NCBI GenBank assembly: GCA_964016885.1
Contig: OZ024742.1
Span: forward strand, 192,324,001-192,388,000
DNA length: 64,000 nucleotides
Origin: Eledone cirrhosa
Taxonomy: Eukaryota
Direction of reading: 5' to 3'
Positions within the stretch are counted from its first letter, which is position 1. Every line of letters begins with the position of its first letter. A model generated the notes under the pieces. It made no database searches and was not told where the DNA came from. It saw only the letters and a program-made list of their open reading frames with translations. Shown piece after piece: positions 3,319-61,703 of the stretch. Position numbers and translations under genes: made by a program.

Positions 3319-3518
3319 TAAAAGGTAAACAAAAAGAACAACACAGTCGGTACAGTATATGGAAGGGATATATTAGGTTAACGCTTGATATGGCAGGAAG
3401 AGGGTTATATATATATATATATATATATATAACCCTCTTCCTACTATATCAAGCGTTAACCTAATATATCCCTTCCATATACTGTACCGATTGTGTTGTT
3501 ATTTCTGTTTACCTTTTA
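3319..3518. repeat. Inverted repeat (~88-bp arms) centred on a (TA)n tract
   Basis: 3319-3406 is the reverse complement of 3431-3518 with a few substitutions; the symmetry continues into flanking (TG)n/(CA)n. Confidence 0.95.
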
Positions 3519-6559: not shown

Positions 6560-6644
<85 letters not shown>

Positions 6645-6956
6645 GTGACTTTTTTTTATCTTTTTTCTTTTTTTTTTCACAAAATGAAGAAAAAAAACGA
6701 GATGTCCTGCAAAGTATAAGGAAAAAAGATGAAATCGAAAATGCAACTGGAGTTTTTTTTTTTAAATATATATACATTTATTTGGTTCCTTTACCGGTTT
6801 CGCAGTACTTGTGCTTTTCAAAAGTAGAATTGAGATGGAGGGTTTGTGGTTTTCCTTATATATATATATGATTTGAATTCAGAACGCAGAGATCCGGAAC
6901 AAATAGCCACCGCTCTAACCAGCCGGATGGTTGGAACAGGTACAAGAGTACAAGAG

Positions 6957-7040
<84 letters not shown>

Positions 7041-7079
7041 GATATTAACAAATGGAAACTATATTTATAAAACCATATT

Positions 7080-7141
7080 TATTTCATTATACATATTTCA
7101 GGGATACCACATTAAATGGTATGCCTTCATCAGACAAAATA
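7080..7141 (-). ncRNA. Minimal type-I hammerhead ribozyme (Penelope-like-element type), family H1
   Basis: Minus strand: tattttgt-CTGATGA-aggcatacca(tttaatg)tggtatccct-GAAA-t(atgt)a-TA-atgaaata. Stems I and II pair, cleavage triplet AUA. Downstream tail is shared with the 26890 copy. Confidence 0.85.
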
Positions 7142-7394
7142 CAATATATAACAGTTTTACAAATAGGTTTGACGTACCCTTTAAAATACAACCATTACTT
7201 TTGGAGGCTGTCTGGATAGTGATTTGTTTATATAATAAGTCATAGTGTTAAGCGCAATTAGAAAAAGACGGAGAGAAAGAAAGAGAAAAGAACAAAGACA
7301 GAGAGAGAGAAAGAAAAGAGAAAGAAAACCTGGAGAAATATCGGAGAGAGAGAGAAATGTATGGAGAAAAGAAAGAGATAGATAAAGATAGGAG

Positions 7395-7503
<109 letters not shown>

Positions 7504-21317: not shown

Positions 21318-22201
21318 CGAGGTGTGTCAGAAAAGTTCCAGGACTGATGTCACAAAAGATTTGTTTCAAACCCAAACTTCCCACTAAGAGTTTTCTCATT
21401 CAAAGTAATCACCCTGGAGTCTAATGCACTTTTTCATCCTTTTCTGCCACGCTTGCATGAACCCCTGGAAGTATTCTTCCGGGATCCTCCGCAGTTCCGT
21501 CGTCACGGCCTTTTTGATGTTGTCCACGTCTTCAAAACGGGTCCCTTCCGGGTCGTACTCGAAGATCCATGACTCACCGGTGATGACTGTCCCTAGCAAG
21601 TCTGGTTCGGTTTCAAGACGTTCGAAGATGTCCTGGCACACTTGCATGCGTCGACCCTTCTGGTCATAGTTCAGCAGTTTTGGCACCAACTTCGCGCAGA
21701 CTTTCCGCATGTCCAAATCTTCAGTGAGAATCTTCCAGACGCTGTCCCGATTCATGCCCAGCTCATTTGCCATCAGTCGAACAGTCAGCCGACGATCGCT
21801 ACGCGCCATCTGCCTGACGCGCTCAACGTTGACCTCAGTCCTGGTTGTTGAGGGCCCTTCCGCTCCTGAGGTCATCTTGCACCACTCAAAAACACGTGAG
21901 CGTGACATCGTCTCATCTCCATACACTTGCTGCAACAATCCCAGTGCTTCTGACGGAGTTTTCCCCAACTGTACCAGAAACTTCAAGTTTGTTCGTTGCT
22001 CTGTGCTCATTGCTTGACGACCTGAAACAGAGGACATGTATATAAAATTATGAAGAAAAAAGTTTGATCGCTGCAGAGAGCTAAGATTACAGTTACATAC
22101 TCCATGGGGATTACTTTGAAGGAGAAAACTCTTAGTGTGAAGTTTGGGTTTGAAATAAATCTTTTGTGACATCAGTCCTGGAACTTTTCTGACACACCTC
22201 G
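21318..22201 (-). mobile_element. Mariner-family DNA transposon, internally deleted (884 bp), ~104-bp TIRs, TA flanks
   Basis: TIRs cgaggtgtgtcagaaaagttccaggactga... / ...tcagtcctggaacttttctgacacacctcg, TA on each side; mariner transposase motifs on the minus strand. Confidence 0.95.
21396..22010 (-). pseudogene. Truncated mariner transposase (HTH retained, most of the DD34D domain deleted)
   Basis: MSTEQRTNLKF..GKTPSE..VYGDETMSRSRVFEW..RKVCAKLVPKLL..VITG(D)ESWIFEYDPE joined directly to GTRFEDV..GDYFE; the catalytic aspartate region is missing. Confidence 0.9.
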
Positions 22202-22499
22202 TATATATATATATACATATAGAATTTATCGATGTGCTATTCGGACGATAGCAACGCAGTTTATGTCACGTATCCTGGAATTCATTGTTTCAGTATAGCC
22301 TATAATGATTTGATTTTGAAAAGGTTGGGAATAGAAGACGAAGGCAACGTGGTAACCACATACAGATGACAACAAACAAACACACACAATATATATATAT
22401 ATTAAAGGACGATCGACTTTCGTCAAATCGGACCGAGGGAACAATGTTTCCGTTGGTCTTTCAAATTGCTAATACTATCTATCGGTCGCAACTCCAGGT

Positions 22500-26452: not shown

Positions 26453-26577
26453 TCTCTCCCTCTCATCTCTCTCTCTTTCTCTCTCTCTGACACATAGGCA
26501 TATATATGTGTATATTCCTATGTTGTAAACACTTGGAGTAATAATAAATCAGGAAATATAATAATAAATTGCGAGAA

Positions 26578-26685
26578 TGCTCCGATGAACTGACTGGTTA
26601 TAACTTTGTATTGGCGATCGAGTAACGTGAAAATAAGCGGATAGCGATCTCTAGACCTACCAGTTCAGAGAAACAATTGTCAGCA
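26578..26685 (+). ncRNA. Type-I hammerhead motif, CCGAUGA core variant, extended stem II
   Basis: tgct-CCGATGA-a ctgactggt...accagttcag a-GAAA-c(aatt)g-TC-agca; palindromic loop III, GUC triplet. Confidence 0.65.
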
Positions 26686-26752
26686 ATGAGATTAAAAACC
26701 TATTTTGTATAGCAAACCGTGTCACTCTTCTTTCCTAATTTATATATATATA

Positions 26753-26891
26753 TACAATGTGTGTTTTATAAATTTTGACATAGCCAAGGAACATACCTTA
26801 ACGGTTGAAGTTTTCCTTGGATAACTTCAAACGTTAAGGTATGTTCCTTGGCTATGTCAATATTTATAAAATTTATAAAACACACTTTGTA
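26753..26891. repeat. Fold-back inverted repeat immediately 5' of hammerhead 26890
   Basis: 26753-26812 is the reverse complement of 26823-26891 (one 9-bp indel); starts at a (TA)n tract. Confidence 0.9.
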
Positions 26892-26951
26892 TTTTATCTG
26901 ATGAAAGCGTACCAAAGTTTTTGGTACCCTTGAAATATATATAATAGAATA
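26890..26951 (+). ncRNA. Minimal type-I hammerhead ribozyme, family H1
   Basis: tattttat-CTGATGA-aagcgtaccaaa(gttt)tttggtaccctt-like stem II-GAAA-t(atat)a-TA-atagaata. Palindromic tetraloop, predicted cleavage after 26943, overlapping AATAAA. Confidence 0.88.
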
Positions 26952-27087
26952 AATATGGTTTTATAAATATAGTTTCCATTTATTTAATATCATTGAATAT
27001 TATACTCCAGTAAATATGTCGAGTGCTCTGAATCAGTTATAAACATTTATATTTGTTGAATTACCAACAAATTGAATATCCCTTCTG

Positions 27088-27156
<69 letters not shown>

Positions 27157-27535
27157 TCTTGGAGCAACGGATATGAACTTCCCGATATAAGGTTTTGATT
27201 CTCTTTGTTTATTTTTATATATGAACATTGATTGTTTATTGTATCTCATTCTGTTATTTTGCCCGAGAAAATATCTATGTGTGTCATCAAATGATGTACA
27301 CATATGTGTATTTTTTCAAATTCCAATTGAGTTCTAGCACGTGGCTTGAATTCCTTTTAGAATTCATTGTCCTGCGCATGTCTTGTTTTTTGGCGGTAAT
27401 TCTCCTTCCTCTTTTTTTGAGACAGTATGAGAATTTCTTTAGAACTGCTGGGCTAGCAACCTAACAGCTACCTCAAGCACTGATGGTGATTATCGCTAAA
27501 TATTGATGTTGATTCAATATTAATATTATAGGGCA

Positions 27536-27662
27536 CCCACTGAAGAATTATAAGAGCTCACTTGAATAAGTATCTGTTGATCTTATACAAGCTTCTACAT
27601 AAATTGGTATAATTTCACCTAACTTGTAGGAATCTTATAATGAAACGAGACGTCCGTCTGGG
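27536..27662 (+). ncRNA. Type-I hammerhead motif with extended stem II
   Basis: ccca-CTGAAGA-attataaga...tcttataat-GAAA-cg(agacgtc)cg-TC-tggg. Perfect 9-bp base of stem II, palindrome GACGTC in loop III, GUC triplet. Confidence 0.75.
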
Positions 27663-27832
27663 AAGAGATATATTTGATATATCTCATATGAAATAATACA
27701 GCCAATTTTCCACACAATACAATTAGTTAGCACCCCGAACGTTTAATTAGGAATATACTCACTTATTTCCTAATGTTTGTTGAGTGAGTTGGGATTTGGT
27801 CGGAGTATCGCTATTAGCTTTCTCCGATAATG

Positions 27833-27872
<40 letters not shown>

Positions 27873-27896
27873 TGTATGTATGTATATATATATGTA

Positions 27897-27975
<79 letters not shown>

Positions 27976-28015
27976 GCCATGACTGAATTTAGTCAAGGTA
28001 TGTCATGCATCATCT

Positions 28016-28082
28016 TATTTTATCTGATGAGGACATACTGTTGAAGATAGCTCAGTACCTCTGAAATATGTATAATAAAATA
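28016..28082 (+). ncRNA. Minimal type-I hammerhead ribozyme, H1-related
   Basis: tattttat-CTGATGA-ggacatactg...cagtacctct-GAAA-t(atgt)a-TA-ataaaata. Perfect 8-bp stem I, predicted cleavage after 28074. Confidence 0.82.
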
Positions 28083-28339
28083 TATATGATCACACGAATG
28101 TCTATATTTGCTAATATTTTGAATTAATATATATATATTTATATATATATATATATATAAATATAATACAGAACACCCGCCTTCCCTAAGTACAAAGCGA
28201 AACCTACAGTCAGTAGGCACCTCTAACAAAAATACACCCCCGTCCCACTACCCCCACCCCATCCACACCACCCCTTTCGATGTAAAGTTATGTTGGTACC
28301 ACAACATCCAGTCCGAAATAAATGAGGTCGTGTAGGTGT

Positions 28340-28566
28340 CACGACAAAAAAACACACAGTCCACGCTGTAATGTGGCCGTGTAGGTAACACGGTAAAAAC
28401 CTCCCAGTCCACTCTGTAAACGTGGTTGGTGTTAGGAAGGGCATCCAGCCGTAGAAAACCCGCCAGACAGTCCTATACGAGCAAGACAACCAATCTTGCC
28501 TCAAGTGGGAAAATTCCCGTCCAAACCCATGCAAGCGTGGAAGATGGACGTTAAACGATGATGATG

Positions 28567-28568
<2 letters not shown>
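28340..28568 (+). mobile_element. RTE-type LINE/SINE 3' tail
   Basis: ggttggtgttaggaagggcatccagccgtagaaaacc...gatggacgttaaac followed by (GAT)n; resembles RTE 3' UTRs from memory. Confidence 0.55.
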
Positions 28569-28609
<41 letters not shown>

Positions 28610-28945
28610 CATATGTCTGTGTCAGAGAGAGATGTGTGTGTGTGCGTGTGCTTATATGTCTATATATATACACATATGTATGTGTGTCAGAGAGAGAGAT
28701 GAGAGAAAGAGAGAGAGAAAGATGTGTGTGTGCGTGTGCTTATATGTCTATATATGTATACATATGTGTCTATGTATGTTGTTGAATGTGCACACGCACA
28801 ATACATAGATGTTTGTATAAGGTACATCATAGAGATATAGACACACCCATATGTTATGGAAGGGAAGGTGGGAAGGAGATTAAGCCAAACACTCAACTAC
28901 ATGCTTTAGGAAAAACCTATTTTAAAGTTTTATACTAATAATGTC

Positions 28946-28977
<32 letters not shown>

Positions 28978-28978
28978 A

Positions 28979-29035
<57 letters not shown>

Positions 29036-29232
29036 GATGTATATATATATATACATATATATCAGATAAATATAACTTCTTGTTTTGTTGGGCAGATTAG
29101 TTCTTGATTTAAATAGTTGTGTTGGTGTTTCACAACCACTTTAGTGTTAAAATATAACCAACTAATGTAGCTATAGTATTTTTTTTATATCTTAATTGGC
29201 ATAGCATATATGTATATATATGTATATATACA

Positions 29233-29272
<40 letters not shown>

Positions 29273-29484
29273 GTATATATATGTAAATGTATATGTATAT
29301 ATATATAAGTTGAAATAGAATGAAACGAAATTTCATTTCTCACTCTTAGTACGGCACTTACTTATCGTTTTCGGTGCGCCTGGCCGACTGAACTCACTCG
29401 ATATGCAAATTAGGCTGCTCAGCCGTTAATTTTCATAAGGAAAGTATATACTTTCGAACGGTCAACCATCTGGCAGAAGGGTAT

Positions 29485-29527
29485 ACGGTGCTGATGATAG
29501 CTAAGAAGCTTGAAACTAGTACATCGT
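29485..29527 (+). ncRNA. Minimal type-I hammerhead ribozyme (43 nt)
   Basis: acggtg-CTGATGA-t agct(aaga)agct t-GAAA-(ctag)-TA-catcgt. Palindromic CUAG loop, GUA triplet, one U.U mismatch at the base of stem II. Confidence 0.8.
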
Positions 29528-29756
29528 TCCTGTGTCAGTGTTGAACAAAAAGGTGACGTGGTTGCCTTAACACCGTACGGCATAAATCAGGCTGTCCGTT
29601 TGTTTACAAACGGACAAAGCGGGCGTTATAATAAACGTCCGCTAAACTGATACGTACATATATATATGTGTACCTGTATGTATATATATATATATATATA
29701 TATGCATACTACTGTACGTCTGTATACATATATGTATGTACGTATACATACATACT

Positions 29757-29813
<57 letters not shown>

Positions 29814-42990: not shown

Positions 42991-44239
42991 CATTGTTTTC
43001 ATATCCACCGTAGAATAAGCTCAAAGATTAGATCCGAGCATTACATATCAATTAGAAATAGATTGACATATATATATATAAAATAAATACATGAAACAAT
43101 CACAGGCAATAATTTGTAAAGAATGTAGGCACACATAGCTAGGTAGGTATCTAATTAAAGTTTGACTAGAACTTCAAATATTAAAATGATTAATCTCCTT
43201 TGTATATATTTCTTTAAGTAAGAAATATATTTCACCTATTAATCCGTAAATCACAGCAGTTAAATTCTTGGATGTTCACCAAAGGAGAAGGAAAAATAAC
43301 CATCTGTGTTTACAAAGCAAGTGCAAATCTGTGAATGATTCGAACCGCGTGTTGCATTTTTTTTAAAATACACTCGTTGAACAACGTCATCCCAGTGGCG
43401 TGAATAGGACCATCGACAGCCAGAAATAGCAGCCGAGCCTATTCAACTGAATTAGCTCAACAATCAAGGGGCCGTATATATATATCCAAATTTAAGGGTT
43501 GTCATGTCTGAGAGACATGCGCCATATCCACCGTAGAGATATATATATAGAGTTTTTTTCGGAATGTTTTTGACTGGTGTTTCATGTAAACAGACATTCG
43601 TCTCATTCTGACGTCACCAGCCCTGTCTCTACATGTGCGTTTTTCTTCATAATTACGCATGATGTTGAACTAGCCTGCTTTTAAAATTCCCTTTTTGGCA
43701 TATTATAAACAGTGGAACTTTGGTTATCGTGTCTTTGAGCTCTGCTGATGATCGATTCCAACCGTAACCATCCCCACTGAAAGTTTCGTGAAATAGTCTT
43801 TAAGACTATACAGAGCATTGCAGATTTTCCAAATTGAAGGATGAGTATTTTAAACTTTATTTTATTCTGAGTTAAGGCTCTATTGATTTTTCCCAGGATT
43901 TCACCAAATTCTGTGGATGAATCTATATCCTGATTCTTTTTGAATTGAGATTGAATTATTTTCCCACATCTTACGTTAACTATTTTTCAATTTTGACGCT
44001 ATAGTCACTTATATATTATGGAATACTGTTAGCTTCTTGCTACAATAATTTCTATACTTTTCATTTATATATATATATATATATATATATAACATTGATA
44101 ACTTTGATAGGAGTTGGCCAGTATTAGCCCAGACTGTGTCTAACTTATAGCACCACCTCTCGAAGTCTTTCATGTCATGTTTCACATATTAATGTTGTAG
44201 TCACAATTGACAACTACATTAAAGAGTTACTGTTGTCGG

Positions 44240-61662: not shown

Positions 61663-61703
61663 GCTCTGATGATCACCAACAGTGTGAAACAGACTCTGTT
61701 AGC
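61663..61703 (+). ncRNA. Type-I hammerhead motif upstream of a repeated tail (61733-61831)
   Basis: gct-CTGATGA-t cac(caaca)gtg t-GAAA-cag(act)ctg-TT-agc; short stems. The tail recurs at 3661-3760 and, inverted, at 63194-63287. Confidence 0.6.

Follow-up and report, generated by a model that had tools for sequence, protein, structure and literature searches.

We analyzed a window of 64,000 nt from the genome of Eledone cirrhosa (assembly GCA_964016885.1, contig OZ024742.1, positions 192,324,001 to 192,388,000 of the forward strand), in which five hammerhead ribozyme motifs lie within 3 kb. Our analysis indicates, with a probability that we place at roughly 0.85, that this cluster consists of five separate insertions that end in TA repeats. 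The cassettes of families A, B, and D would be truncated ends of three coding families of Penelope-like elements of the Hydra clade, those of families C and E would be closed hammerhead units that are likely to be mobilized in trans, and integration is likely to involve paired priming. An initial annotation, made from the sequence alone, had placed type I hammerheads on the plus strand at 26578, 26890, 27536, 28016, and 29485, and all five were confirmed at these starts. It assigned them to at least three sequence families; we find that the five motifs represent five families. The features of the cluster are as follows, S1 denoting a tail-less 3' end and S2 a 3' end that includes a tail.

26509–26556, minus strand: inverted 5' arm of family A, a 3'-end remnant with about 35 nt of tail (97.9% identical to the tail of coding copy L152)
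26578–26743, plus strand: sense arm of family A, the predicted pseudo-long terminal repeat (pLTR)/3' end of a Hydra-clade element, ending at tail-less S1 in (TA)n (97% identical to the L152 pLTRs)
26578–26685, plus strand: hammerhead A, type I (found by descriptor; CCGAUGA core, long stem II, helix III ACAAUUGU)
26752–26823, minus strand: inverted 5' arm of family B, making the long hairpin (95.8% identical to L233)
26819–27089, plus strand: sense arm of family B, predicted 3' end of a second Hydra-clade family, with the tail at about 26996–27089, ending at S2 in (TA)33 (from copies and the endonuclease upstream)
26890–26951, plus strand: hammerhead B, type I (both descriptors; stem II covaries in the B/D/7080-like group)
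27157–27835, plus strand: family C, closed non-coding unit (about 700 bp) present as one near-complete copy (from repeat copies)
27536–27662, plus strand: hammerhead C, type I (relaxed descriptor; CUGAAGA core, long stem II)
27974–28130, plus strand: family D, truncated on its 5' side, predicted 3' end of a third family of the Hydra clade, with S1 in (TA)n as its terminus (from copies and the endonuclease upstream)
28016–28082, plus strand: hammerhead D, type I (both descriptors; covariation)
29306–29364, minus strand: inverted 5' arm of family E, equal to the tail (query positions 1–59 match reversed beside the unit start in many copies)
29360–29759, plus strand: family E, non-coding closed unit measuring about 480 bp when the tail is included, with one (TA)n tract inside it and its S1 end in another (from repeat copies)
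29485–29527, plus strand: hammerhead E, type I (relaxed descriptor; helix III ACUAGU)

Family A flanks a Hydra-clade coding sequence

Long copies of cassette A, which had 2,230 first-look candidates in the 3.0-Gb genome, extend upstream into a coding remnant, and an 83-amino acid piece of this remnant, corresponding to the C terminus of an endonuclease, was used as a query. This loose first look gave 48,069 candidates, and in 27 of its 30 best loci cassette A was found 0.7–1.2 kb downstream on the same strand. Four copies (L146, L147, L148, and L153) have cassette A on both sides of a long open reading frame (ORF), in the order pLTR-ORF-pLTR, and provide for family A the full-length Penelope-like partner that the initial annotation had proposed to look for. 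The ORF of L146 is 806 amino acids long and bears the motifs RWK, DKT, YRDD, CxCx5C, CxxC, and CxH; in the ORF of L148, one cysteine of the linker is changed. The Hydra motifs (RWK, DKT, CxCx5C, CxxC, and CxH) are conserved in 73–78 of the 78 aligned sequences, and CCHH was not seen among the conserved columns of the family A alignment, as judged by eye. RWK, DKT (from DKG), a CxCx5C linker, CxxC and CxH flanking the endonuclease, and the lack of CCHH are described as traits of the Hydra clade (PMC8557442, section 11).

The structure model of the L146 ORF had a predicted local distance difference test (pLDDT) score of 86, and a structure search with it ranked telomerase reverse transcriptases (RTs) first (E = 2.6e-9); a sequence search of solved structures gave no match for the ORF or its profile. 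The GIY-YIG endonuclease of family A was called from its motifs and a weak match to a Neptune endonuclease (E = 0.008). A single ORF with a telomerase-like RT and a predicted C-terminal GIY-YIG domain is thus found between direct pLTRs, and the tail of family A leads into the start of this ORF. Based on the motifs, the pLTR layout, and the predicted fold, rather than on an RT tree, we assign family A to the Hydra-clade Penelope-like elements.

The link to the Hydra clade was reached by way of the coding remnants upstream of long A copies, after a genome search with the Pfam GIY-YIG family had missed the parents. The Neptune- and Poseidon-type elements recovered in that search are not the parents of the five cassettes, none of the 35 loci found with PF01541 having one of the cassettes as its regular 3' end.

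Families B and D are linked to related endonucleases

Families B and D (2,525 and 1,715 first-look candidates, respectively) were also found downstream of Hydra-type endonuclease sequences on the same strand. For family B, the endonuclease lies 1.1–1.4 kb upstream in 6 of 30 pattern-picked loci. For family D, a second Hydra-type endonuclease lies 1.3–2.2 kb upstream in 6 of 20 fetched stretches, the copies running through a 3' untranslated region (UTR) of up to 2.2 kb into the endonuclease. Both endonucleases, that of B being a third beside those of A and D, carry CxCx5C and CxxC..CxH, and the motifs RWR, DKT, and YRDD, from N-terminal RT pieces, were seen in inverted arms of B copies. Family B seemed at one point to be a short fixed hairpin element because its copies were ranked with a query that contained the hairpin; this candidate was rejected as an artifact, about 23 of the 30 pattern-picked copies (by eye) sharing a long upstream region. 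A hammerhead in the pLTR together with insertion into (TA)n is found for all three families. These data indicate that the cassettes of A, B, and D are 5'-truncated ends of three predicted coding families of the Hydra clade and are not non-autonomous.

Most inverted insertions carry a single tail

Copies of four families end at one of two fixed positions, S1 without a tail or S2 after a tail of approximately 55–170 nt. This holds in family A for 70 of 75 hits and in family B for 97 of 100, and in families D and E for 58 of 60 and 78 of 83 hits. TA repeats follow in 65 of 75, 85 of 100, 53 of 60, and 43 of 83 hits, respectively. For family E, 37 of the other 40 ends are tail ends, as head-to-tail junctions would give, although the junctions were not inspected singly.

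We examined how the two ends are combined in inverted (head-to-head) insertions, counting only those with TA repeats at both outer ends and excluding ends that lacked TA or lay less than 30 nt from the edge of the locus. Among loci chosen blind to the ends (n = 41), 34 were S1/S2, 5 were S1/S1, none was S2/S2, and 2 were of other types (p = 2e-6 against 50:50). Insertions picked with end-containing queries (n = 39) gave 37 S1/S2, 1 S1/S1, no S2/S2, and 1 other. Many of the junctions between inverted copies abut, with 0–6 nt of overlap. In the window, the A and E copies have a tailed inverted arm and a sense arm ending at S1; in the B copy it is the sense arm that is tailed, and the inverted arm is short. 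Published accounts describe the tail only as "optional" at one inverted end (PMC8557442, PMC3846280).

An Anolis Poseidon element studied in vitro cleaves each of the two target strands and extends it, uses two start sites between which the tail lies, and is predicted to act as a dimer (PMC11167929). When the two start sites and the extension of both strands are taken together with the one-tail pairing, they are most simply explained if each cut strand primes at its own site and microhomology joins the two cDNAs. According to this model, the GIY-YIG endonuclease would cut both strands of a (TA)n tract and the telomerase-like RT would copy RNA from each cut strand. The inner site, S1, would serve as the start of one cDNA and the outer site, S2, as that of the other, the tail being the stretch between them. 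Both copies would stop at variable points and be joined head to head by microhomology, giving an inverted insertion with exactly one tail. Single-arm or head-to-tail copies would result where only one arm survives, or from a tandem or circular template. Cleavage of the multimeric transcript by the hammerheads would be slow and would probably take place in dimers, by way of the palindromic helix III, or with the help of protein. Evidence unfavorable to paired priming comes from the six S1/S1 pairs, which violate the one-tail rule, and from the Poseidon study, which saw in bulk no difference between strands in the start site (PMC11167929); the arm lengths considered below are in addition biased by the queries and by gaps in the ruler.

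A possible but less probable source of the inverted copies is self-priming or fold-back of one template, such as an antisense RNA, with the endonuclease of the same elements trimming one end at S1 as it resolves the intermediate. Palindromic junctions in rotifer Penelope elements have led to such a proposal (PMC3846280), the tail has been ascribed to endonuclease-mediated resolution (PMC8557442), and fold-back too predicts a single tail per insertion. The arms of family B also often have private changes in common (L006, L010, and L013), but these can be explained as well by one source locus or by conversion within the palindrome. Copying of a tail-less cDNA cannot yield a tail. Simple fold-back would moreover fix the longer arm to one end type, whereas in 55 insertions the longer arm was the tail-less one in 29 and the tailed one in 11 (8 had equal arms and 7 were unresolved). 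Because either arm can be the longer, a single fold-back from one fixed start is excluded as the source of both arm orders.

Families C and E are closed non-coding units

First-look searches gave 3,551 candidates for family C and 2,098 for family E, and exact pattern matches numbered 321 for C (21 nt) and 4,948 for E (23 nt), with none for the reversed controls. We examined 30 pattern-picked copies of each. In family C, the unit start is preceded by the family's own 3' end in 13 copies, is otherwise reached in 4, and is lost by truncation in 13; TA repeats terminate 24 of the 30. In family E, the family's own tail precedes the unit in 10 copies, 3 others reach the unit start, and 17 are truncated. 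A relative of E (76%) forms a tandem array with a period of 422 bp that spans the whole 10 kb of L297 (G000:C28:110000001-110010000), in the manner of a retrozyme-like satellite. Both families thus have a non-coding unit of a few hundred bases, a type I hammerhead, and head-to-tail repeats, and as non-autonomous closed units they appear to fit the animal non-long terminal repeat (non-LTR) retrozymes. They are likely to be mobilized in trans by Hydra-type elements.

It is unlikely that C and E are instead terminal parts of coding elements, with the copies that bear an ORF having escaped sampling. The examined copies are a small part of the exact matches (30 of 321 and 30 of 4,948), A, B, and D all turned out to be coding, and a parent coding family for C and E may yet exist. 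However, the tails of C and E run into their own unit start, whereas the tail of A runs into the start of an ORF, and the long tandem array of the E relative also speaks for a closed unit.

Still less credible is the proposal of the initial annotation that all five cassettes belong to non-autonomous, retrozyme-like families. It noted correctly that the window contains no RT or GIY-YIG ORF (tblastn with the Hydra-, Neptune-, and Poseidon-type proteins of this genome gave no match at E < 1e-3), most copies are short, and C and E are closed units that do look non-autonomous. The proposal fails for the other three families, A flanking whole ORFs on both sides and B and D continuing through long 3' UTRs into Hydra endonuclease sequence.

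The hammerhead motifs and their folding

Type I hammerheads were searched for with a relaxed and a stricter descriptor, 100 local dinucleotide shuffles serving as the control for the relaxed one. The relaxed descriptor detected 8 motifs in the window, where the shuffles averaged 0.02 (maximum 1), and the stricter one found 3 against 0.04, demonstrating that the motif excess, for which the initial annotation had proposed such a control, is real. The relaxed set comprises 26578, 26890, 27536, 28016, 29485, 43739, and 51466 on the plus strand and 7141–7080 on the minus strand. It includes two of the additional sites listed earlier, 7080 on the minus strand and 51466, together with a motif that had been overlooked (43739–43816, plus strand). 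At two more of the listed sites, 8214 and 42814, the core boxes are visible by eye and the descriptor failed; the 42814 site has a complete relative in locus L076. At 61663 the first core box is present and the complete motif absent. The "weaker variant" at 6789 on the minus strand is a U3/A8 core variant that forms part of a Neptune-type element. A scan of the window with Rfam gave no hammerhead family among the 150 of 337 matches listed, only microRNA-like hairpins.

Other details of the initial description stand in part. The cassettes are split by TA microsatellites, except that the tract at about 29680–29703 is internal to the family E unit, and approximately 1.2 kb of other repeats separates the fourth cassette from the fifth. 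The 15.1–16.1 segment is fully self-complementary in four of the five motifs when G-U pairs are allowed, and 62% so in the motif at 27536. AATAAA is present downstream of 4 of the 8 motifs, in 3 cases overlapping or abutting stem I. Its function as a poly(A) signal was considered and rejected as unsupported, because the copies finish in (TA)n rather than in poly(A).

The core boxes, the three helices, and covarying stems of type I hammerheads are found in these motifs. The CCGA(A/U)GA core is family-wide in A (54 of 61 matches among the collected loci, with overlapping loci not merged), position 4 being C throughout. The B/D/7080-like group was represented by 16 natural motifs; 10 of their 21 pairs are altered on both sides, 5 of these in inner stem II, and the core is invariant except for N7. 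This count was equaled in 1 of 500 shuffles, but the test leans in favor of covariation because the motifs were picked by a descriptor that requires pairing. Further caution as to activity comes from folding and from published assays. None of the five motifs shows all three hammerhead helices in its monomer minimum-energy fold, and only two are clearly more stable than their shuffled versions (z about -2 and -2.5). Eight of nine retrozyme dimers tested elsewhere were uncleaved (Li et al. 2026, preprint 10.64898/2026.07.22.740005), and the Poseidon hammerhead required protein and was dispensable for insertion (PMC11167929). The missing three-helix monomer fold is expected for motifs with a weak helix III, yet it lends no support for activity; the palindromic helix III fits predicted cleavage as dimers.

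Hammerhead-like motifs with variant cores were also seen by eye at the ends of other Hydra families, 3' of the ORFs in L085 and in L010/L096/L099 (CAGAAGA, and CUGAGGA with a short stem II), and are missed by the descriptor.

The cluster is ordinary for this genome

All five cassettes proved on genome-wide search to be dispersed repeats rather than single-copy sequences; for each, 40 candidates were scored, the best being 87–99% identical. An end-blind sample of forty 10-kb stretches (400 kb), placed at round-number positions and including 24 from the four largest contigs, contained 48 motifs, compared to 0–2 in ten shuffles. Three of the 40 stretches hold four motifs each, and L297, with its array, holds 15. 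Scaled to the genome with a bootstrap over stretches, this gives 180,000–610,000 motifs, or 146,000–369,000 (median 253,000) when L297 is omitted, an approximate estimate in that the descriptor overlooks some families and counts decayed copies.

A tract of (TA)5 or longer lies within 350 nt downstream of 31 of 33 end-blind motifs, compared to 27% of random positions. This upholds the proposal of the initial annotation that several Penelope-like families target (TA)n. TA tracts are more frequent in the window (3.3 per kb) than in the samples (1.4 per kb), which fits the nesting of TA-seeking elements: each insertion leaves flanking TA repeats, with the result that later elements would land in the same patch. 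The shared orientation of the five motifs had been presented as noteworthy, and we dismiss it as a special feature, neighboring motifs of different families being on the same strand in 29 cases and on opposite strands in 25. The 3-kb cluster is thus ordinary for this genome. A selected, co-transcribed ribozyme array with a host function, which five motifs on one strand within 3 kb might bring to mind, is highly improbable, since five of five on the same strand is a 1 in 16 chance and every cassette has ordinary insertion ends and dispersed relatives that are 90–99% identical to it.

Neighboring repeats

Several other repeats were noted in the window or beside cassette copies elsewhere. The sequence at 6560–6860 (minus strand), which includes the U3/A8 hammerhead, is the 3' end of a Neptune-type element with RT and GIY-YIG (the family of L081, L082, and L087; 5 hits in the 400-kb sample). 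Family F, a relative of B and D at 7040–7420 (minus strand), is the commonest of the window cassettes in that sample (10 hits). A hammerhead repeat with a long, stable helix III at 43548–44091 (plus strand), containing the motif 43739–43816, is 86% identical to a copy in L093. Between D and E, a repeat without a hammerhead (28150–28560) recurs beside cassette copies in L007, L038, and L110. The sequence at 3372–3465 forms a nearly perfect hairpin around a (TA)n loop and may represent two element ends joined tail to tail. A palindromic element of about 170 bp in (TA)n, in which no hammerhead was seen, adjoins many cassette copies (L015, L016, L029, L041, L163, and others). A 289-amino acid open frame at 21396–22265 (minus strand) has a weak match, below the cut-off, to the helix-turn-helix domain of the Mos1 transposase (PF17906, E = 2e-4) and is likely a mariner remnant.

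Discussion

The interpretation of the cluster as five TA-ended insertions from three coding and two closed families has to be set against several results that weaken it. A Pfam search with the L146 ORF gave no hit. For families B and D the links come from broken, partial ORFs and whole elements were looked for without success, and RWK/DKT were unseen for D among the fetched stretches, which end short of the N terminus. For C and E no coding partner was found: the 26 stretches with coding copies gave no match except separate E-like insertions in L193, and two C matches do lie near an endonuclease, with the end of another element intervening.

Much of this organization is already known from the Hydra clade (Craig et al. 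2021, PMC8557442), which includes Hydra-1_Obim from Octopus bimaculoides. The families described here share with it the predicted C-terminal GIY-YIG endonuclease, the motifs RWK, DKT, CxCx5C, CxxC, and CxH, the pLTR hammerhead, insertion into (TA)n, partial tandems, 5' inverted copies, and the optional tail. They differ in number, clustering at 75% identity sorting 56 endonuclease pieces into at most 18 groups (frameshifted copies are counted apart), and in their 3' UTRs of 0.8–2.2 kb and tails of about 55–170 nt. The hammerhead listed for Hydra-1_Obim (file S2), compared by eye, matches none of the five. The motifs also resemble the minimal hammerheads of Penelope-like elements (Cervera and de la Pena 2014, PMC4209133) in the short helix I, the palindromic 15.2–16.2 and loop 3, the covarying families, the head-to-head pairs 100–700 bp apart, and the U3-A8 core variant, represented here at 6789 on the minus strand.

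Families C and E share with animal non-LTR retrozymes (Cervera and de la Pena 2020, PMC7229834; preprint 10.64898/2026.07.22.740005) a non-coding unit that spans a few hundred bases and holds a single type I hammerhead, head-to-tail copies, dimers, and arrays, low G+C, and a location beside Penelope-like elements. They differ in that most copies lie scattered in (TA)n as 1.x-mers or inverted pairs and have the fixed ends and tails of Penelope-type elements, and in being known from DNA alone. A parent pLTR was not identified for C and E; the 2026 preprint derives retrozymes from pLTRs. The Anolis Poseidon system (Frangieh et al. 2024, PMC11167929) agrees with the model proposed here in having a start site at either border of the tail, in cutting and extending both strands, and in its AT-rich target. 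It belongs to another clade, and the parts of that paper available to us neither report the pairing of start sites per insertion nor address inverted products.

The Hydra clade, its hammerheads, its targeting of (TA)n, and one family in Octopus bimaculoides were thus known, and expansions of Penelope elements in coleoids have been noted (PMC8967140). What is new is the genome-wide motif estimate (146,000–369,000) and the counted one-tail rule. Published hammerhead counts run to thousands per genome, with approximately 9,000 in Xenopus tropicalis (PMC4209133), 126,247 canonical motifs in axolotl (PMC7229834), and 235 listed for giant squid (PMC6962438). Our estimate exceeds the Xenopus and axolotl counts, but it comes from another descriptor and a 400-kb sample. 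We give about even odds to the combined proposition that integration is paired and asymmetric, the two strands priming at S1 and S2, which would account for the single tail as well as for the head-to-head inversions, and that the genome, after a burst of many Hydra-clade families with retrozyme-like passengers, carries about 250,000 hammerheads, one per 12 kb, in excess of the cited counts. In the literature that we consulted, mostly papers outside subscription, none described a Hydra expansion of many families, cephalopod hammerhead counts of this order, or a counted one-tail rule.

The origin of the inverted repeats and tails of Penelope elements is stated as open in PMC8557442 and PMC11167929. 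Thousands of young copies in four families of this genome let the pairing of tails be counted, and the near-strict pairing leads to a sharp prediction for work in vitro. The genome also supplies intact ORFs of the Hydra clade, a clade known from few families, and it holds coding and non-coding hammerhead families side by side. The main text of a paper on the repeats of O. vulgaris, as available to us, never uses "ribozyme" or "Hydra" (PMC13282606). If the density estimated here holds, standard repeat and Rfam annotation would miss a large part of such genomes.

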